Part shown: positions 19,581 through 34,001 of the stretch, in pieces
How positions within the stretch are numbered: position 1 is the first letter of the stretch
Layout: every line of letters begins with the position of its first letter
Source of the DNA: a virus
Taxonomy: Duplodnaviria > Heunggongvirae > Uroviricota > Caudoviricetes
IMG/VR virus record: IMGVR_UViG_2571042487_000002
Span: 1 to 34,042 of that record
Reading direction: 5' to 3' (one strand)
DNA length: 34,042 bases
The notes under the pieces: model-generated
Databases searched by the model: none
What the model saw: only the letters and a program-made list of their open reading frames with translations
What the model was told of the DNA's origin: nothing
Program-made: the position numbers and the translations under genes

Positions 19581-20278
19581 GCGAAATTAATTACCGGGCA
19601 CTGCGTGAGATAGCAAAACAGGCAACACAGGGCGAATGGGTCGCATTTATTTCGCCGGGTACTGGTACGTATGCGGTGCATACGCCCGGTGATAAACGAT
19701 GTGAAGACGTTATCAAATGGACCGGCTTTGATGGACTGAAAAACGCAGAGAACAACGCTCGTTATATTGCCGCATTCAACCCAAAGGTTGCACTGGAGCT
19801 ACTTGGTGAAATTAAGCGCCTGGAGGACACAAATATTGATGCTATGTGCCGAATAGCACCGCTTGAGACTAAGCTCGCGGCTCTGGTGGCAGAGAACGCT
19901 GGGCTGAAACACGCAATGGCTGTAACTCTTGATCATGTGTCGGTCACGGATGCAGGGCAGGCCGGAGTTGCTGCAATGATTATCAACGATGCCCTACACC
20001 ACAGCGAAACTCCAGCTACCGATGCTTTTCTGGCTGAAATTCGTGCGGAAGCACGCAACGAGGGGATTAACTATACCGCCAGCCGTCTTGCTGCTGCGTT
20101 CAATCACGGATTTATCAATAAGTCTTTGCGTGAAGTTTTCGACGTTACGCGCATGATTCTGTCAGCGAAAGAAGAGTTGGCTAATGAACCGTACCCGATT
20201 GATGGCCTGTCCGGTGAATATGCGGAGAAATCCCTTGAAGAATGGGCTGAACAGATTCGCAAAGGAGCTGACAAGTGA
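19577..20278 (+). CDS. Ead/Ea22-like accessory protein
   Basis: GTG start after AAAGGAGG; N-terminus VSEINYRALRE... shared with the ORF at 21440; C-terminal block PATDAFLAEIRA shared with the ORF at 20694. Confidence 0.5.
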   Translation: MSEINYRALREIAKQATQGEWVAFISPGTGTYAVHTPGDKRCEDVIKWTGFDGLKNAENNARYIAAFNPKVALELLGEIKRLEDTNIDAMCRIAPLETKLAALVAENAGLKHAMAVTLDHVSVTDAGQAGVAAMIINDALHHSETPATDAFLAEIRAEARNEGINYTASRLAAAFNHGFINKSLREVFDVTRMILSAKEELANEPYPIDGLSGEYAEKSLEEWAEQIRKGADK

Positions 20279-20685
20279 AGAAGATGATTTTTGTCGCGGC
20301 ATTGTTGGTGAATATCCAACAAGTGCATGCTTCAGCAGCTATTGTAGCCTCTACCGCCGCGACTACGGCTGCTGTAGCTGCTGCGAACTCTGCGAATATC
20401 GCAAACCAACAGGCACAGCGTGCTGCTAATGCATCAGCCAGCGTTCACCCAATCACCATTAAGAGCAGTAAGCAAAATCTGGGATTCATAACGTGCGGCA
20501 CGCGTTCTAATGAAGCTGTAGGCTCTCTGGGATGTACGGTATATGGCGATAGTGAGCGCAGAGAAATTCCATGGAAAACGTGGCCCGGATACGTTCTCGG
20601 ATCGAAGCTCCCTGCCAGCTACGAAGTAAATGCCGTATCGTTTGATCACTATAACGGCGTGGCAACTGTCTATTTTACATACTGA
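20275..20685 (+). CDS. Secreted or periplasmic small protein (signal peptide)
   Basis: N-terminus MKKMIFVAALLVNIQQVHA-SAA is a signal-peptide-like h-region with AxA cleavage site; two Cys in the mature part. Confidence 0.5.
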   Translation: MKKMIFVAALLVNIQQVHASAAIVASTAATTAAVAAANSANIANQQAQRAANASASVHPITIKSSKQNLGFITCGTRSNEAVGSLGCTVYGDSERREIPWKTWPGYVLGSKLPASYEVNAVSFDHYNGVATVYFTY

Positions 20686-20693
20686 GGCTCCGC

Positions 20694-21443
20694 ATGAAAT
20701 TCTCCAAATTTTCTGAGTTGGTGAATCGTATTTTGTTGAATCGTATTTTGTCCAACAACCACAGCCATCGTCGCGATATGGATGTAACGATCGTTGTTCA
20801 TTCGCCTGGCAGCATTGGTTCAACACCTTCAGTTGAGGTTCAGTCAATTCACGCTGGTTTTGATTGGGATTCCGGGAAAGTGCTTATTTTCCCATCACAG
20901 CCACTGACCACGCTAACACCAGAACAGATTACTGATATCACTGATAGTGTGCGCAAAGGTCAGTCTTGGCACGCATATCAGGAATACAAGAAGCATCAAG
21001 AGCAGTTGGAAAAATTGTCGATTGAACTGGATGCCGCAAAACAGCGCATTGCAGAGCTGGATGGTAATCGCACGGCGCTGGCAGTGGAGAATGAGCTGGC
21101 TCGTAAGGCAGTTCAGGCATTCTGCGATGTTGTTGGCGACAACACCGAGGTTATCGCTGAGGTGGTTGGGCGAGATGGCGTTCTGGTTATTTTGGAGGCC
21201 ATGAAGGCAACAGGAAATATGCCAGCCACCGATGCTTTCCTGGCTGAAGTGCGGGCGCAGGGCGTGGATGCTGCTATAGAAGCTGCAAAAAATCTGGTGG
21301 CCCAAGAATATGAGTATAAGGATTTCAAAGCGGCGCAGAGTGATTGCTGTATGCACCCTGGTTCAGACCTGGTAGGGAAGGTTGAAATGACTGAGTGGTT
21401 AGTTGACTTTGCTGCCCAGCTTCGCAAAGGAGGCAACCAGTGA
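20694..21443 (+). CDS. Ead/Ea22-like coiled-coil accessory protein
   Basis: Central coiled coil; C-terminus ...FAAQLRKGGNQ and a PATDAFLAEVRA block. Confidence 0.5.
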   Translation: MKFSKFSELVNRILLNRILSNNHSHRRDMDVTIVVHSPGSIGSTPSVEVQSIHAGFDWDSGKVLIFPSQPLTTLTPEQITDITDSVRKGQSWHAYQEYKKHQEQLEKLSIELDAAKQRIAELDGNRTALAVENELARKAVQAFCDVVGDNTEVIAEVVGRDGVLVILEAMKATGNMPATDAFLAEVRAQGVDAAIEAAKNLVAQEYEYKDFKAAQSDCCMHPGSDLVGKVEMTEWLVDFAAQLRKGGNQ

Positions 21444-21928
21444 GCGAAATTAATTACCAGGCACTGCGTGAGGCGGCGGAACGTGCAATTCCAGCAATGG
21501 AACGCCTGTTAATGTTGCCAGCTGATGATGATTTGTTAAGTGAACAGGAACTTAAAGATTACGGTGTGGATATTGATGCGCTCAACGCCTTCAAATTTCT
21601 GGCCGGACCAGAAACCGTGCTGGCACTACTGGATGAACGGGAAAGGAACCAGCAATACATCAAATCCCGCGACCAGGAGAACGAGGATATTGCGCTAACG
21701 GTAGGGAAGTTGCGCGTTGAGCTTGAGGCAGAAAAACAGCGGGCAAAGGATCTGTTTATGGAAAATGCTCGGCTTAAGTCAGGTATAGCCGGTCTGATAC
21801 ACCTCGGTATTCGATATGCAGATGTTGATGTCATGAAAATTGCTGGAGATGCCCAGCTTTCTACCCCATGCACTGACAGCATCATAAACAGCATTGCAAC
21901 AGGCATTCGCATCAACGGAGGTGAGTAG
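21440..21928 (+). CDS. Ead/Ea22-like accessory protein
   Basis: GTG start after AAAGGAGG; N-terminus VSEINYQALRE. Confidence 0.5.
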   Translation: MSEINYQALREAAERAIPAMERLLMLPADDDLLSEQELKDYGVDIDALNAFKFLAGPETVLALLDERERNQQYIKSRDQENEDIALTVGKLRVELEAEKQRAKDLFMENARLKSGIAGLIHLGIRYADVDVMKIAGDAQLSTPCTDSIINSIATGIRINGGE

Positions 21929-22104
21929 TGCGTGTGGCATGTATTGGCTTGTTACCGTACCCGACTCGTTTTTGGGCTTCTGCGCTAATTGCAAAGCCAC
22001 AGGTCCTGATGGCTGACAACATCACCCCAGCACCAAAGCGCCGCCATACCGGTATTGCAGCGGCACGACGAGCAGCAAAGAGACGCAGGAGAGCAAAGCG
22101 ATGA
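21928..22104 (+). CDS. Possible small basic protein (58 aa)
   Basis: GTG start after GGAGGTGAG; Arg/Lys-rich C-terminus (AAARRAAKRRRRAKR); not in the ORF track. Confidence 0.25.
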   Translation: MRVACIGLLPYPTRFWASALIAKPQVLMADNITPAPKRRHTGIAAARRAAKRRRRAKR

Positions 22105-22277
22105 AAAACCGTAAGGCAAAACGACTTTTTTTACAGCGACCTGTGCGTGTGGTGGAGCTGGTTATCAGCAACCATAAGATAGCGGTACTCCATCCATTTG
22201 GTCAGGTGGCTTTTGCCGCAAAGCGTAAGCCTAGCGCGTCACAGAACAGGCGGAAGAAAGGGTACGCAGTAAGATGA
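22101..22277 (+). CDS. Small basic protein (58 aa), paralogue of the next ORF
   Basis: ATGA coupling; MKNRKAKRLFLQRP...KRKPSASQNRRK parallels the ORF at 22274. Confidence 0.35.
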   Translation: MKNRKAKRLFLQRPVRVVELVISNHKIAVLHPFGQVAFAAKRKPSASQNRRKKGYAVR

Positions 22278-22462
22278 AAAACCGTAAAGCAAAGATTCTG
22301 TTAGTTCGTAGAAACGCTCCTGGCGTCTGGCAGTGGGTGAGACTCAGCAACCGACGGATGGGGTTGATGAAATATTACGGGATGATGGATTGTGGTTTTT
22401 GCAAAAAGCCCAGCGCGGCGCAAAACCGCTGGAAAAACCATTTGCGCACTAAAGGAGAGTGA
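22274..22462 (+). CDS. Small basic protein (62 aa)
   Basis: MKNRKAKILLVRRN...KKPSAAQNRWK; contains CGFC. Confidence 0.4.
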   Translation: MKNRKAKILLVRRNAPGVWQWVRLSNRRMGLMKYYGMMDCGFCKKPSAAQNRWKNHLRTKGE

Positions 22463-22463
22463 T

Positions 22464-22979
22464 ATGGCGTTAACACACCGCGAACTCTGTCAGATTGCGT
22501 ACAAGTTCCTTAAGCGCAACGGGTTCAAGGTTTGTTTTCATGACCGCTTTATAGCTGTAACCAGTACCGGAGAACAGCCAGATGCTATGGGGTTCAGAAA
22601 TTCAGCATCATGCCTGATAGAGGCGAAGTGTTCTCGTGCTGATTTGTTGGCAGATAGAAAAAAGCGTTTTCGTAAAAATCCGTCTCTTGGAATGGGCGAC
22701 TGGCGATTCTTTATTAGTGAGCCGGGAATTATTTCAATTGAGGATTTACCACCTGGCTGGGGATTACTTCACGTTGTTAACGGAAGAGTACGGAAAGTAC
22801 ATGGGTGGCCCAAGGGTAATTGCTGTTGGGGTAACCCTGAAGATAAACCTTTTATTGGGAATAAGCAGGTTGAATGCGATTACATGTTATCTGCATTAAG
22901 GCGCATGGAGTTGAGAGGGCACCTTAATGAAATATATGACGGTGTAATTGTTAATAAGAAAGAAGGAAACGCGGCATGA
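22464..22979 (+). CDS. PD-(D/E)xK nuclease-like protein
   Basis: Start refined to the ATG after AAAGGAGAG; GEQPDAMGF...CLIEAKCS fits a PD...E-x-K core. Confidence 0.45.
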   Translation: MALTHRELCQIAYKFLKRNGFKVCFHDRFIAVTSTGEQPDAMGFRNSASCLIEAKCSRADLLADRKKRFRKNPSLGMGDWRFFISEPGIISIEDLPPGWGLLHVVNGRVRKVHGWPKGNCCWGNPEDKPFIGNKQVECDYMLSALRRMELRGHLNEIYDGVIVNKKEGNAA

Positions 22980-23833
22980 TCACTATTACCAAAGAGCGAC
23001 TGCTGACAATCAAGCAGTGGCGCGAAACATACGGACCTGATAGCAACGTTGTACTGCCAGCAGAAGAAGCGGAAGAACTGGCGCGTATCGTGCTGGCATC
23101 GCTGGAAGCAGAGCCTGTTCTGTATCAGTCCTGCACTCGCCCCACCTGGAATAGCGGTGTTCCGTGGACGGAATGGAAAGAACGTAGTCGTGAGTGCTAC
23201 GAAGACGATTTGCGTTTTACAGACACGCCTGACCATGCCGGTTGGATATACAAATGTCGAAAACTATATACCACTCCGCCAGCGCCGATAGCGTTAGAGG
23301 CCATTGAAAACGCAATTGAATACATTCGTAGTATCGCTTTTCACATCGATGAAGACGATTACCACGGCAAACATATTGCGTATTTCATGCGACAAGCATT
23401 GGCCTGGCTGGAAGGGCATTCATGCAGCGACGACAGACTGGGTAAAGCCGACAATCAACCAGTACGCGGCAACCAGGCTGCCGAATCCAATCGCGGTAAT
23501 GAGTGGACCGGCAATCCTGATATTGATAACGCAATCATCATGCTCGACCGCATAGATACGGCGGAAAGTTACGATGATGACCGTATTGAGGCTGTTAAGG
23601 CTGTTTTGCGTAGACTGGCAGGCAACTCTCCGGTAACTCCGGATGGTTGGATAAGCTGTAGTGAGCGAATGCCCCCTCAAGATGATTGGATTTTAATTTA
23701 TTCAAAGCACGGCGAGTATATGGCAGGACAGGTACAAGGGGAATACGTGGAGTTGAGCGACGGCACTTTATCGTGGTTAGGGAACGCCTTGTTCTGGATG
23801 CCGCTACCAGAACCGCCGCAGGAGGCGAAATGA
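22976..23833 (+). CDS. Ead/Ea22-like protein with DUF551-like C-terminus
   Basis: C-terminal WISCSERMPP...WILIY...G...LSWLGNALFWMPLPEPP matches the DUF551 pattern seen in lambdoid accessory genes. Confidence 0.5.
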   Translation: MITITKERLLTIKQWRETYGPDSNVVLPAEEAEELARIVLASLEAEPVLYQSCTRPTWNSGVPWTEWKERSRECYEDDLRFTDTPDHAGWIYKCRKLYTTPPAPIALEAIENAIEYIRSIAFHIDEDDYHGKHIAYFMRQALAWLEGHSCSDDRLGKADNQPVRGNQAAESNRGNEWTGNPDIDNAIIMLDRIDTAESYDDDRIEAVKAVLRRLAGNSPVTPDGWISCSERMPPQDDWILIYSKHGEYMAGQVQGEYVELSDGTLSWLGNALFWMPLPEPPQEAK

Positions 23834-24090
23834 TGGATGTAAAAGAGAAGGTTTTGCAGGTGATGCGTTCCCGTGCTGCCCTACAAGAGAAAGCTCTCGG
23901 CGGTGAATATCCATTCACGATAGCAACCTGGAATCTGCGGTTGGCAATGGAGAAGGAATTTCCTGATGAAGAATGGCGCTCGGCAGATTTGCGCAAAATT
24001 CTTATGGAGCTGGCTAAAGACGGAACAGTATCCAAAGATACCCATGCCAGCCGGATTGGTCAGGCGGTATGGAGACTTGAGGTGCGGTAA
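23830..24090 (+). CDS. Hypothetical protein (86 aa)
   Basis: ATGA coupling to the upstream gene. Confidence 0.35.
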   Translation: MMDVKEKVLQVMRSRAALQEKALGGEYPFTIATWNLRLAMEKEFPDEEWRSADLRKILMELAKDGTVSKDTHASRIGQAVWRLEVR

Positions 24091-24166
24091 TGAGCTGGCC
24101 TGAAGCATTTGCGATTGTAGGCGTAGCTATGGCGATTGCCGCTATTTTTATCTTCTGGGGGTAACG

Positions 24167-24400
24167 ATGGGAAAATTAACTTTTGTTGTCGAATTTGAGG
24201 ATGGCAAAGAGCCACCTGTTAGCGCCAATCTTGATGTTGCTGGTGGCAGGCTGGTTTCGGTTCTATTTGGTGATTACCGCGACGACTTCTTTCAGCCTGA
24301 AGAAGTTGATGTAGTGCGAGAGGCATTAAACGAGTTAAGTGTTGATAACGATGATGCTCATGCGGAAATCATCCAAAAAATGGAACTGCTAACTCACTAA
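24167..24400 (+). CDS. Hypothetical acidic protein (77 aa)
   Basis: ORF; preceded by a 24-codon hydrophobic micro-ORF (24090-24164). Confidence 0.35.
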   Translation: MGKLTFVVEFEDGKEPPVSANLDVAGGRLVSVLFGDYRDDFFQPEEVDVVREALNELSVDNDDAHAEIIQKMELLTH

Positions 24401-24448
24401 ATTATCAATTATGGTGCTATCACCTACGACACCGAGAGAAAATTTATA

Positions 24449-24571
24449 ATGTCAAAAGTAAATGTTTTGATTTTTTCAGCAATTGTTGGCTTTGGTTTTA
24501 CTGCCGGAGTGCAGATTTATATTACGTGGGAAAAAATCATCAACTACGCATGGAGTTGTTTTATTAAGTGA
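24449..24571 (+). CDS. Possible small membrane peptide (40 aa)
   Basis: MSKVNVLIFSAIVGFGFTAGVQIYITWEKIINYAWSCFIK; lies in the A+T-rich islet. Confidence 0.25.
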   Translation: MSKVNVLIFSAIVGFGFTAGVQIYITWEKIINYAWSCFIK

Positions 24572-24578
24572 GGTAAGT

Positions 24579-24872
24579 ATGTGGAGAGGTAATAATCATG
24601 GCAAAAGCCAGATGATACTTACCGAATATAAGCTAGACCACAAAACCAATAAATCACGCTCAGTATATTTGCTCCGGCACAATAGCCGCGTAAGAAATAC
24701 CGTGCTGGAACAAAATCTGACAGTTGAAATGGATAATTGCGGGGAATTCAAGCCAACAATTTCGCTTGATGATTTTCCTCGTGGTTTAAGCGAAAGAGAT
24801 GCAATGCTGAAATTAGCAGAATGGCTACAAAGATTAAGCATTGCTATTGAAGATAACTGGTCTGAACCTTAA
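24579..24872 (+). CDS. Hypothetical protein (97 aa)
   Basis: Start refined to the ATG after AAGTGAGGTAAG; lies in the A+T-rich islet. Confidence 0.4.
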   Translation: MWRGNNHGKSQMILTEYKLDHKTNKSRSVYLLRHNSRVRNTVLEQNLTVEMDNCGEFKPTISLDDFPRGLSERDAMLKLAEWLQRLSIAIEDNWSEP

Positions 24873-24878
24873 ATTTAT

Positions 24879-25253
24879 ATGATGACACTAAAACATTTTC
24901 TTGACCGCCCATTATGGGCGGCAGCCGCAGGCTATGACTTTAATTATATGGATTGCATGTCTTATACTGCCAATGCATACGACCATTCGTTCATCCTGCT
25001 GTTTAATTCTTTAAGAATATTGCCGGAAACAGAAGTTGGAGAGCTTCATTTATGGCTATTGGGCTTTATCGCGGCTGTCGTTGGTATTGCTGTATGGCCT
25101 TTTATTTTCTGGCTGGTGGCTGTTGTAGTGTGGTTTAAGTGCAAGACATACCGGAAAAAGTATTTCTTAGGTGATGGAATGACTGATATTGCCAAAATGA
25201 ACATTGAAGAATGGACTAAGGAATGTGAAAAGAAATGGCGCAAAAAGAAATGA
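24879..25253 (+). CDS. Hypothetical membrane protein (124 aa; 2 predicted TM helices, K-rich tail)
   Basis: LWLLGFIAAVVGIAVWPFIFWLVAVVVWF hydrophobic core; lies in the A+T-rich islet. Confidence 0.4.
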   Translation: MMTLKHFLDRPLWAAAAGYDFNYMDCMSYTANAYDHSFILLFNSLRILPETEVGELHLWLLGFIAAVVGIAVWPFIFWLVAVVVWFKCKTYRKKYFLGDGMTDIAKMNIEEWTKECEKKWRKKK

Positions 25254-25834
25254 CCAGAATCACTGAAGAGCGCATATCAGAGATTATTTCCCGTATCGAA
25301 ATGTATGGTCACGGTGCTGGATATACGGCAGATGAAGTATTGGAAATAGCCCAGCAGATGCTGGCCTTGAGACAAAAAGAGCAACATGAAAGTAATACGT
25401 GTAGATTGAATTTTGAGCATTGGCTGGAACAGCAACGCGGAAAAATCGATGTGGACTGTGGTTGTGTGTCCACTGAAACATTCATGCACTGGCTGTGGGT
25501 AGCTTACGAGGCTGGCACCGGTGAACGTATCCGCATTAAGCCGCATGTTTATCGCGAACTGGTTAACCGTCTCCACGATACAGCGATCAAGTGTGCTGGC
25601 ACCCAGCAATTACGAGAAAGAATTAGCCGTGTTTTGGGCGACGTTATTACACCAGATCATCATAAACAAGCCGAGAAAAGTGACCTGGAAAGGTGTCACC
25701 TTGAGGCGGCATTAAACATTAAGCCGGGGCATACGCTTGGCATTATTGATGCACTATTGGTTCATAAGATGGCCAGGGCTTTATTGCCGCTGGTGGCTGA
25801 AAAGCATGAGGTGGACCATGCCAACGAAAGCTGA
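25235..25834 (+). CDS. Hypothetical protein (199 aa)
   Basis: ORF; no motif recognised. Confidence 0.45.
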   Translation: MAQKEMTRITEERISEIISRIEMYGHGAGYTADEVLEIAQQMLALRQKEQHESNTCRLNFEHWLEQQRGKIDVDCGCVSTETFMHWLWVAYEAGTGERIRIKPHVYRELVNRLHDTAIKCAGTQQLRERISRVLGDVITPDHHKQAEKSDLERCHLEAALNIKPGHTLGIIDALLVHKMARALLPLVAEKHEVDHANES

Positions 25835-26102
25835 ATTACAGGTGCGCGTAGATGAGCTTGAAAAAGAGAACGCGAGCCTCAAAAAAATGCTGTCGCGGGC
25901 GGAAAGGGAATTATCAGGCAAATTATTGCCAGAAGAACTGCCACCAGCAGATATACCTGATCGAGTGTCCTGGTGGATGAAGTATTTCCGTGCACCGTGG
26001 GAGGCGTTTTGGTGCTACGACCATCGCAGATGGTGTGATGAACTTGATAGCAATTTTCCCTACTTTGCGGAAGGGAACACCTGCCCTCAATGCAGGGGAT
26101 AG
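25818..26102 (+). CDS. Hypothetical protein (94 aa) with N-terminal coiled coil and C-terminal CPQC
   Basis: Start refined to the ATG after GAGGTGGACC. Confidence 0.4.
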   Translation: MPTKAELQVRVDELEKENASLKKMLSRAERELSGKLLPEELPPADIPDRVSWWMKYFRAPWEAFWCYDHRRWCDELDSNFPYFAEGNTCPQCRG

Positions 26103-26469
26103 CATTTGACGAAATCGATCACCCTATCCTGAACTTCAGAAAGAAGGTCTTTTTCACGCGCCAGGACGTCAGGATATTGACGTCCTGGCCTTACCAGCTG
26201 CCGGAGCTTCCCATTAAGCAGAATGGCCTCAGAAAACACTTTTACGCTGTGCTTTATCCCCTCTGTTTCACTTTTCAGCGTCAAAATAATGCGCAATTGC
26301 TTATTAGCCTGATTCGGATTCAATACACGAATTTGCAGTTCGTCTATGCTGTTCCGCAATGGGATTGATGCCACCACACTGGTGCAGTCTCTGATTGTCT
26401 GAATTGAACGGCTAACATTGAGAACGTTATTGTGCATGTGCCTGATCCACTAACTCCTGGAGGTTTCTT

Positions 26470-26721
26470 GTGTCAGATCGAAATATAGCAGCTAAAAGCC
26501 AGGAAGAGCGAGACAAGGTGAACGTAGACCTTGCCGCCAGCGGCGTTGCTTACAAAGAACGGCTGAATATACCTGTGATTGCAGAGCAAGTGGCCCGTGA
26601 GCAACCGGAAAACCTGCGCGCCTATTTCATGGAACGGCTACGGCACTACCGGCAGTTAAGCCTCCAGTTGCCAAAAGGGAGCGATCCGGTGTATCAGAAC
26701 GAGGATGCACCAAAAAAATAA
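26470..26721 (+). CDS. hot: Homologue of DNA polymerase III theta subunit (HolE-like)
   Basis: GTG start; core [43 protein letters not shown] closely parallels E. coli HolE ([39 protein letters not shown]...). Confidence 0.8.
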
Positions 26722-26780
26722 CGGCAAGATGGGGGAGAAATGTGATTAGCCCCCAGCGTGGCGCGCCTACAAACCCCGCT

Positions 26781-26825
26781 TTCACAAACTATGCCTTTTC
26801 AATGTATACTGTATGAATAAACAGT
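26781..26825 (+). promoter_or_regulatory. LexA (SOS) box overlapping a candidate promoter for humD
   Basis: TACTGTATGAATAAACAGT at 26807-26825 (CTGT-N8-ACAG); -35 TTCACA (26781-26786) and -10 TATACT (26805-26810). Confidence 0.7.
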
Positions 26826-29164: not shown

Positions 29165-29206
29165 ATTGCTCTAATGTATTGCTATTTCTTTAATCGAGGG
29201 TATTAT
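29165..29206 (+). promoter_or_regulatory. C1 operator-like site overlapping a candidate promoter for lpa
   Basis: ATTGCTCTAATGTATTG (29165-29181) begins 2 nt after the upstream stop; candidate -35 TTGCTA and -10 TATTAT with 17-bp spacer. Confidence 0.55.
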
Positions 29207-33437: not shown

Positions 33438-33454
33438 AGATTTATTAGTGCATT
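33438..33454 (-). promoter_or_regulatory. C1 operator-like site between coi and c1
   Basis: Minus-strand AATGCACTAATAAATCT (14/17 to consensus). Confidence 0.4.
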
Positions 33455-33663
33455 TATTGTGAGTCTGGCTGGTTAGTGGCCATGAGATATTCGATTGTGT
33501 CAGTGAGATCATCCAGGTCGTCTTGGGTGATGCGGTACTCCTGATTGGATATCTTTGAGTAGTGTTCAGCAATGGCGCGGGCAGCGTCGGTTTCGGCGGG
33601 GTCTACAGATAAAGCGTTAGAGCAATGTCTAACGTCGTCGATGGTTGGTGGAATGAAAGCCAT
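33454..33663 (-). CDS. coi: C1 inactivator (Coi)-like small protein
   Basis: 69-aa acidic ORF immediately upstream of c1 on the same strand. Confidence 0.7.
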   Translation of the reverse strand: MAFIPPTIDDVRHCSNALSVDPAETDAARAIAEHYSKISNQEYRITQDDLDDLTDTIEYLMATNQPDSQ

Positions 33664-33901
33664 AATTATGCCTCACTGTATTGACAACACAGAGCCTGAA
33701 GCTCTGACCTACTGTTTCACCCATGATCCATGCTGGGGTAATCTAACAACATTGCGCTGTGTGTAAGATGAGCAATGCATAGCTGTAATGCCGTTGTATA
33801 AGGTTTCCCTGTTTGCTCATTTCCTTCTGAGCCGCTCTACAACGCTGAAGACACATTAAATAGTGAATCCAAAGTCGTATTACGAAACGGCGGCAAAACT
33901 A

Positions 33902-34001
33902 TAATTTATTAGAGCAATTGTCAAACAACTATGAAAAACAATCCAGTTTTTGGCTGGTGGAGTGGGATTTTTCTCTCAAAATTTATTGCTCTAATAATTC
34001 T
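33902..34001. promoter_or_regulatory. Cluster of C1 operator sites upstream of coi-c1
   Basis: Minus-strand ATTGCTCTAATAAATTA (33902-33918) and plus-strand ATTGCTCTAATAATTCT (33985-34001) followed by TTGATT. Confidence 0.6.

Follow-up and report, generated by a model that had tools for sequence, protein, structure and literature searches.

Phage-plasmids of the P1 type contain variable regions that have been reported to be low in G+C, and the neighbourhood that concerns us here has been published as "variable region 8" (PMC9603915). In P1, screens have found pmgT, pmgU, pmgV, upfN, upfO and hot to be non-essential (PMC10695390). For lambdoid phages, the exo-xis genes have been described as those transcribed earliest, as dispensable, and as having effects on lysogenisation and induction and on DNA replication or the cell cycle (PMC8614690). 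Here, we analyse a stretch of 34,042 nucleotides (nt) of a Caudoviricetes virus, positions 1 to 34,042 of the IMG/VR record IMGVR_UViG_2571042487_000002 (hereafter the window), and within it an A+T-rich islet at 24400-25260 that a first-pass annotation, made from the sequence letters, had suggested to be a recently acquired moron. We find that the islet is an ordinary, widely shared mosaic accessory cassette in a known variable region and not a self-contained, recent defence or toxin unit. The explanation that we favour, with a probability of about 0.62, is that it forms the core of a four-gene early accessory module, orf77-pep40-orf97-orf124 (~24155-25253), made up of pooled small genes that lie in the pmgT operon and modulate the host or the development of the phage.

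Judged from its gene content and nearest relatives, the window is part of a P1/SJ46-like phage-plasmid, since the 2.1 kb around the islet are 99.6% identical to the E. coli plasmid pLR-21-1_3 and 97.5% identical to Salmonella phage SJ46, and since P1-type genes follow 3' of the islet (hot, humD, phd/doc, pdcB, lpa, pacA/pacB and c1). The same 2.1 kb match 460 plasmids, mainly non-mobilizable and ~90-100 kb in size, as well as several P1-type phages. By blastn against NC_005856, the window is collinear with canonical P1 up to 19027 and again from 25518, and what lies between is an accessory insertion of 6.5 kb. The islet sits on a P1-type backbone between pap/PpmgT, with the C1 operator Op88, and hot-lxr-humD, where gene content varies among P1-like elements in at least three structural forms. 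Position, variable content, low G+C and an operon that is non-essential in P1 are thus all shared with variable region 8, whereas the four module genes are missing from canonical P1 and the region here is 6.5 kb longer. Papers on P1-like variable regions yielded no individual description of the four genes, and a literature search by their RefSeq accessions and PHROG identifiers gave no result. The 6.5-kb block makes the pmgT operon ~4 times longer than in P1, and Eaa/DUF551-like genes lie within the block.

The islet had been judged A+T-rich by eye, and this impression is borne out: it is the stretch of lowest G+C of its size in the window, at 0.383 (38.3%) against 0.4855 (48.6%) for the window as a whole and 0.480 and 0.483 for its 2-kb flanks. 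Over all 861-bp segments the mean is 0.4855 with a standard deviation of 0.0234, which places the islet ~4.4 standard deviations low; the 0.075% of segments that are as low all overlap the islet, and the next-lowest segment that does not overlap it stands at 0.439. Maximum-likelihood segmentation sets the low-G+C tract at 24325-25414. Recombination breakpoints were mapped in 76 P1-like IMG/VR loci, chosen for carrying orf124, and they coincide with gene boundaries: on the left they cluster at ~24150 (40 loci), ~24570 (16) and ~23790 (12), and on the right at ~25250 (26), ~25340-25350 (35) and ~25510 (15). Because of these clusters, we take orf77-pep40-orf97-orf124 as the unit. The interval first proposed, 24400-25260, therefore caught an islet that exists, but the true unit begins at ~24155 and includes orf77, which the left edge of that interval had cut off.

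Is the low G+C a property of the DNA, or of the proteins that it encodes? It might be merely a side effect of membrane and Lys/Asn-rich protein content and thus uninformative on the origin of the DNA, and a split of composition by the codon usage of 20 backbone genes does ascribe part of the G+C deficit to amino-acid content (-0.10 in pep40, -0.05 in orf124, -0.03 in orf97 and -0.01 in orf77). However, when measured against backbone codon usage, each of the four genes also shows a deficit of -0.04 to -0.06 at synonymous sites, and this holds even for orf77 and orf97, whose products are soluble; in the flanking genes this component is about nil (+0.003, -0.007 and -0.020). The compositional edges of the islet also match the recombination breakpoints, and homologs of two module genes in other phages match their local G+C: the orf97 homolog of a Citrobacter prophage has 0.493 against 0.499 in its flanks, and the pep40 homolog of phage EC.W1-9 has 0.480 against 0.485 in its surroundings. 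Homologs of orf124 are A+T-rich in Yersinia (0.41) and Proteus (0.29) phages. A cause in amino-acid content only is largely refuted by the synonymous deficit, and we regard it as very improbable. As that deficit runs through all four module genes and is about nil in the genes beside them, the module bears a genuinely foreign composition signature, and the islet is distinct from its flanks in synonymous composition as well as in G+C.

The three open reading frames (ORFs) of 40, 97 and 124 amino acids that the first-pass annotation had listed are present, each with a full-length match to a PHROG family without known function, and in relatives they are annotated as "hypothetical protein" only. 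From their patterns of sequence variation, orf77, orf97 and orf124 are clearly real genes under purifying selection. The strongest constraint within the module falls on orf77, whose ratio of nonsynonymous to synonymous polymorphism (pN/pS) is 0.07 over 54 intact copies, with third-position variation in excess; its product has 18 Asp and Glu residues and a net charge of -12, and G+C at its third codon positions is 0.36. Small acidic early proteins are frequently inhibitors or mimics; our searches assigned orf77 no functional family, structure or function. The orf97 product was described as soluble, and it indeed bears no hydrophobic segment; its gene has a pN/pS of 0.20, again with third-position variation in excess, and is the most widespread of the module, with ~120 clusters in enterobacterial prophages, nearly all of them exactly 97 amino acids long. 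An AlphaFold model of this protein (predicted local distance difference test score, pLDDT, 87) shows a four-strand beta-meander followed by a C-terminal helix, for which fold and sequence searches gave generic matches only, none of them informative. The hydrophobic character of pep40 is likewise confirmed (Kyte-Doolittle maximum 1.83, residues 3-25). In 54 of 58 loci the reading frame is uninterrupted, and its pN/pS is 0.52 with no third-position excess; relatives in lambdoid phages are also 40 amino acids long, at ~50% identity, with a pN/pS of 0.49 at near-saturated pS. Taken at sequence level, pep40 is probably a real gene, weakly constrained.

The orf124 product combines a conserved acidic N-domain of ~55 residues with a hydrophobic helix of ~31 residues around a central Trp-Pro-Phe and a Lys-rich C-tail, which had been noted correctly (12 Lys and Arg among the last 37 residues). 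The two transmembrane helices that had been proposed are unlikely: the uncharged hydrophobic segment measures 31 residues in orf124 and 22-36 (mean 29) over 26 family members, and AlphaFold draws a single helix over residues 54-96 with modest confidence (pLDDT 67). Across the 26 members, the 15-residue flank on the N-terminal side of this segment averages 1.8 Lys+Arg and 3.0 Asp+Glu, and the C-terminal flank 4.6 and 2.0. Most likely, the modelled protein has one transmembrane helix with a predicted N-out/C-in topology, the acidic N-domain outside and the basic tail inside, because an acidic N-flank and a basic C-flank are oriented in this way by the positive-inside rule. The family is narrow, with 16 clusters among 5.8e9 proteins and 35 representatives among 1.84e9, and its N-domain carries the motif T-x-K-H-F-x-D-x-P-x-x-A-x-x-A-G-Y...D-C-x-S. 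Members of at least 40% identity came from P1-like and from N15/PY54-like phage-plasmids, which are unrelated to each other, and the more distant ones came from a few further enterobacterial phages. Some GenBank records label proteins of this family "conotoxin" (Yersinia phage vB_YenS-P840, locus positions 4001-4360) or "ribonucleotide reductase large subunit" (Proteus phage Isfahan, locus positions 3477-3830); on a membrane protein of ~120 amino acids, both look like annotation errors.

The relatives of the four genes point to a shared pool. The orf97 family is hosted by Klebsiella, Citrobacter, Salmonella, Raoultella and Erwinia prophages, and in Citrobacter prophages its members belong to the early-left operon, where genes for a dATP/dGTP pyrophosphohydrolase and an exonuclease come next, ahead of xis and int. 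In other Citrobacter lambdoid prophages, orf77 homologs are the final gene ahead of xis-int, and pep40 homologs lie directly 3' of ea22/Eaa in lambdoid coliphages such as phage EC.W1-9. Homologs of orf77, pep40 and orf97 are thus placed in early-left operons between recombination genes and xis-int, and those of orf124 are not; the latter occur at 51-60% identity in the early regions of N15/PY54-type linear phage-plasmids, between an exonuclease and Dam/DinI, and at 31-40% identity in Yersinia phage P840, Klebsiella phiKp_30 and Proteus/Morganella phages. Co-occurrence of the four genes outside P1-like elements was looked for and not found. The genes that flank the islet are Eaa/Ea22/DUF551-like by Pfam and PHROGs, and with homologs of orf77, pep40 and orf97 beside ea22/Eaa or ahead of xis-int in lambdoid phages, the earlier term "ea22-like accessory region" is apt.

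By analogy of context, the lambdoid exo-xis/ea genes (ea22, ea8.5, orf60a, orf61, orf63 and orf73) are the closest counterpart of the module. The likeness lies in the location of the orf77, orf97 and pep40 homologs, in the Eaa/Ea22/DUF551-like flanks, and in small, dispensable genes under a repressor-controlled early promoter. In contrast, the module proteins show no sequence homology to the solved exo-xis structures (no corresponding PDB hit at E<=1) and no fold match, and homology to the named proteins Ea8.5, Orf63, Ea22 and Orf73/TraR was found neither in Pfam nor in PDB or fold searches. To our knowledge, none of the named lambda exo-xis proteins is a membrane protein.

How common is the module, and how old? 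Among 5426 complete E. coli genomes, 561 have a P1-type pacA; 309 of these (~55%) contain part of the islet, and 203 contain at least 80% of it. It is almost always on plasmids, and identity among carriers ranges from 90% to 99.8%. The islet is hence present or absent among P1-like genomes and not universal, missing as it is from canonical P1 and from ~45% of P1-like elements. Synonymous diversity is 0.10 in orf77, 0.11 in orf97 and 0.04 in orf124 against 0.01-0.05 in hot, humD, phd and doc (7 loci with all compared genes), so that the module appears, on sequence diversity, to be at least as diversified as nearby backbone genes. Because of this prevalence and this diversity, the module does not qualify as recently acquired. 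What does hold of the earlier reading is horizontal exchange of an accessory element, as indicated by the synonymous G+C deficit, the breakpoints at the composition edges and the presence or absence among P1-like elements. An example of allelic replacement of cassettes is provided by RCS47-type and "P1" MH422554-type elements, in which a 91-amino-acid ASCH-like gene (3293-3570 of the MH422554 locus) stands at the same boundaries in place of pep24-orf77-pep40. In some plasmids, orf97 is the one gene retained.

The transcriptional setting is that of a long operon under repressor control. All genes from 18237 to 25834 are on the + strand, with gaps around the module of 2, 48, 7, 6 and -19 nt, and the operon that contains the islet is headed by the C1 operator Op88, which in the annotation of canonical P1 overlaps the promoters P1/P2pmgT directly after pap. 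The next C1 operator match 3' of Op88 is Olpa, at 29165. A consensus scan detected no + strand sigma-70-like promoter between 18140 and 26780, and terminator-like sites did not exceed their shuffled expectation, none being convincing. The nearest terminator-like site is a weak 6-pair stem at 24129-24145, within pep24 at the left edge of the module. We infer that the module would be co-transcribed from PpmgT after C1 repression is lifted, with early timing. Like the morons of the Hendrix type, it is present or absent between conserved neighbours and deviates in composition; unlike them, it has no promoter or terminator of its own detected in the consensus scans, and with genes 6-7 nt apart or overlapping, ~6 kb into an operon with a C1 operator at its head, it is apparently read through. 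The term "moron" is therefore not supported.

Matches to the C1 operator consensus ATTGCTCTAATAAATTT occur ten times in the window against 0.18 expected by chance: as an overlapping inverted pair at 2305-2332, singly at 12373, 15997, 16046, 18138 and 29165, and three times near c1 (33438-34001). The motif TTGCTCTAATAAATTTATTAG was at one point considered a P1 late-promoter motif, which is wrong; according to the P1 annotation it is the C1 operator consensus. Two features just 3' of the PpmgT promoters are conserved in P1: a perfect hairpin at 18187-18209, rich in G+C and resembling a terminator when read on the minus strand, and then a 28-amino-acid hydrophobic ORF at 18237-18323, MNTAFKIIMAAIYFWLFSITFGGIVAHG, which is unannotated there.

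In the mechanism that we propose, the module would have been assembled from a pool of small early accessory genes traded among temperate enterobacterial phages, a pool that would take in the early regions of N15/PY54-like phage-plasmids as well as the lambdoid exo-xis/ea region. When infection or induction relieves C1 repression, RNA polymerase would start at PpmgT (~18.15 kb) and read ~8 kb of packed genes, and pep40, orf97, orf124 and orf199 would be translated serially, across gaps of 7 and 6 nt and then a 19-nt overlap. As predicted, orf77 would be an acidic protein of the cytosol and pep40 a peptide with one membrane span; orf97 would be soluble, with an alpha+beta fold, and orf124 would cross the inner membrane once, with its acidic N-domain in the periplasm and its basic tail in the cytoplasm. 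They would be dispensable for phage growth, since the module is missing from canonical P1 and many P1-like elements and its host operon is non-essential in P1. Most likely, they would tune host physiology or early development in the manner of the exo-xis genes, with orf124 and pep40 acting at the inner membrane.

Several points weigh against this account. The module proteins contain no recognisable functional domain, and the proposed role is drawn by analogy from genomic context. Co-transcription and timing are likewise predicted from sequence; scans by consensus could miss a weak or non-sigma-70 internal promoter in A+T-rich DNA, and the weak terminator-like hairpin described above lies just 5' of the module. 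The topology of orf124 is derived from charge bias and a model of modest confidence, the comparison of diversity between module and backbone is based on 7 loci only, and linkage statistics are conditional, as the 76 IMG/VR loci were chosen for carrying orf124.

The functions suggested in the first-pass annotation, namely a toxin/immunity pair, superinfection exclusion or abortive infection, found no backing in PADLOC, NCBIfam or Pfam. For the seven proteins encoded between 22976 and 25834, scans of Pfam, NCBIfam, PADLOC and PHROGs returned PHROG families without known function only, with nothing at E<=0.1 in PADLOC-DB v2 (5027 defence models), and PDB sequence and profile searches with orf77, orf97 and orf124 gave no match. 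The most serious rival, which we nevertheless consider unlikely, is an antidote-toxin or immunity pair in which orf124 damages the membrane and the soluble upstream orf97 neutralises it. Each of the 76 P1-like loci with orf124 has orf97 immediately upstream of it, at a distance of 6 nt, and some P1-like plasmids carry orf97 without orf124, whereas no intact orf124 without orf97 was seen in P1-like elements, which is the asymmetry expected of a toxin with its antidote. Tight linkage of genes 6 nt apart, however, is expected from common descent alone, and elsewhere the two genes part company: orf124 homologs (33-60% identity; N15/PY54-like and Proteus phages) follow unrelated genes, with no orf97 homolog found there, and orf97 homologs in lambdoid prophages precede unrelated enzymes. 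The element already has phd/doc, and the pair has no PADLOC match and no promoter of its own. A faint match of orf124 to the membrane toxin CptA (PF07254; E=0.076, 13.6 bits against a cut-off of 27.3, residues 57-114) would favour the pair, and orf124 resembles CptA/YgfX of CptAB in its small size, its place in the inner membrane and the basic segment that comes after a hydrophobic core. The match is nonetheless far below the Pfam threshold and confined to 1 of 26 family members, and orf124 differs in having one predicted transmembrane helix rather than two and a conserved N-terminal domain without counterpart in CptA, so that we reject orf124 as a CptA toxin.

A defence cassette expressed from the prophage, in which pep40 and orf124 mediate superinfection exclusion or abortive infection, is likewise improbable. 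Small inner-membrane proteins in a polymorphic A+T-rich cassette, set in a variable region of a temperate element, are what one would expect of it, but none of the 5027 defence models matched, the module genes occur separately elsewhere, and with no promoter of its own found, a C1-controlled operon should be silent in the lysogen; C1 repression argues against any function that depends on expression in the resting prophage. An exclusion function of the early lytic cycle, like that of T4 Imm and Sp, is conceivable and overlaps with the early accessory module that we favour. It is also doubtful, though conceivable, that the orf124 family represents an unrecognised class of single-span inner-membrane proteins with a conserved periplasmic N-domain that would act early on the envelope, for instance by blocking DNA entry of competing phages, or a membrane toxin held in check by orf97. 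Least probable of all, in our view, is that pep40 is a type I toxin whose translation is repressed by an antisense RNA from the opposite strand. The peptide has the size and hydrophobicity for such a toxin, and a minus-strand promoter-like site at 24604 to 24576 is directed across it; that site is marginal (9/12 matches), promoter-like sites are fewer than expected from shuffled sequence (5 against 8.0), no minus-strand terminator was found, and for 23000-26800 Rfam returned nothing beyond a spurious microRNA match below threshold. Moreover, pep40 lies inside the operon, 48 nt after orf77 and without a long leader, it is often missing while its neighbours remain, and its lambdoid homologs are ordinary operon genes after ea22.

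As an early accessory module, the four genes offer a quantified example of how variable regions of P1-like elements are assembled, with lambdoid and N15-like early genes joined at gene boundaries in a repressor-controlled operon and retaining a foreign codon signature despite being common in the population. P1-like elements occur in ~10% of complete E. coli genomes and carry resistance genes, and separating cargo from backbone aids their annotation. The module holds no pointer to a new mechanism; a functional screen could reasonably include orf124 and also orf77, which is acidic and strongly constrained.

Table 1. Coordinates of the module, its genes and neighbouring features in the window.
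Feature	Position	Strand	Remarks
Low-G+C recombination module orf77-pep40-orf97-orf124	24155..25253	+	G+C 0.397; commonest unit by breakpoints
orf77, acidic soluble protein of 77 amino acids	24167..24400	+	phrog_3876 over full length, E=6e-53
pep40, single-span hydrophobic peptide of 40 amino acids	24449..24571	+	phrog_5525, 40/40 positions, E=1e-24
orf97, soluble protein of 97 amino acids	24579..24872	+	phrog_1258; ATG with GAGG in front
orf124, predicted membrane protein	24879..25253	+	phrog_2638; pN/pS 0.25, third-position excess
Palindrome CCGCCCAT-T-ATGGGCGG	24905..24921		within orf124 codons 9-15 (DRPLWAA)
C1 repressor operator OpmgT (Op88)	18138..18154	+	ATTGCTCTAATAAATCT, 1 mismatch to consensus; sequence and position identical to annotated P1
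Accessory insertion relative to canonical P1, 6.5 kb	19028..25517	+	substitutes for 64 bp at the pmgT/pmgU junction; islet is its distal end
pep24, doubtful hydrophobic ORF of 24 amino acids, MSWPEAFAIVGVAMAIAAIFIFWG	24090..24164	+	overlaps orf86 stop codon; start is ATA in 6/11 related loci
orf199, chimeric 3' neighbour of orf124	25235..25834	+	19-nt overlap with the end of orf124

The perfect 8-bp palindrome that had been placed at 24904-24920, ahead of the 124-amino-acid ORF, exists, but it lies one base further on and inside orf124. The window has ~10 sites with a perfect 8+8 inverted repeat (18 overlapping hits, where 5.3 +/- 2.9 were obtained by Markov simulation), and on sequence grounds this one is a by-product of coding, in which Arg CGC pairs with Ala GCG and Pro CCA with Trp TGG, and not above chance. 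The residues D-R-P-L-W-A-A are kept down to 51% identity, which confirms the annotated start of orf124; in diverged homologs the amino acids are kept while 3-7 of the 8 palindrome positions are complementary, and 4 of the 76 close alleles break the palindrome with no compensation. The sequence can fold as a 7-bp hairpin. A regulatory hairpin or terminator was considered and rejected, there being no T-run after it, no conservation in DNA, and a local fold z-score of only -2.15.

At the left edge of the module, pep24 is doubtful as a gene because its start reads ATA in several related loci (Table 1). On the right, orf199 is a chimera: it shares 72% identity with the P1 pmgU frame over residues 76-187, and its N-terminal part matches Eaa-type PHROGs. 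Further afield, the pmgT operon is separated from hot by a region without collinearity to canonical P1; there, a 116-amino-acid ORF lies on the minus strand at 26087-26437, and it is annotated as "hypothetical" in the closest plasmid. Inside the 6.5-kb insertion, a 136-amino-acid ORF at 20275-20685 begins with VKKMIFVAALLVNIQQVHASAA, which resembles a signal peptide, and its product may be a secreted or envelope protein.

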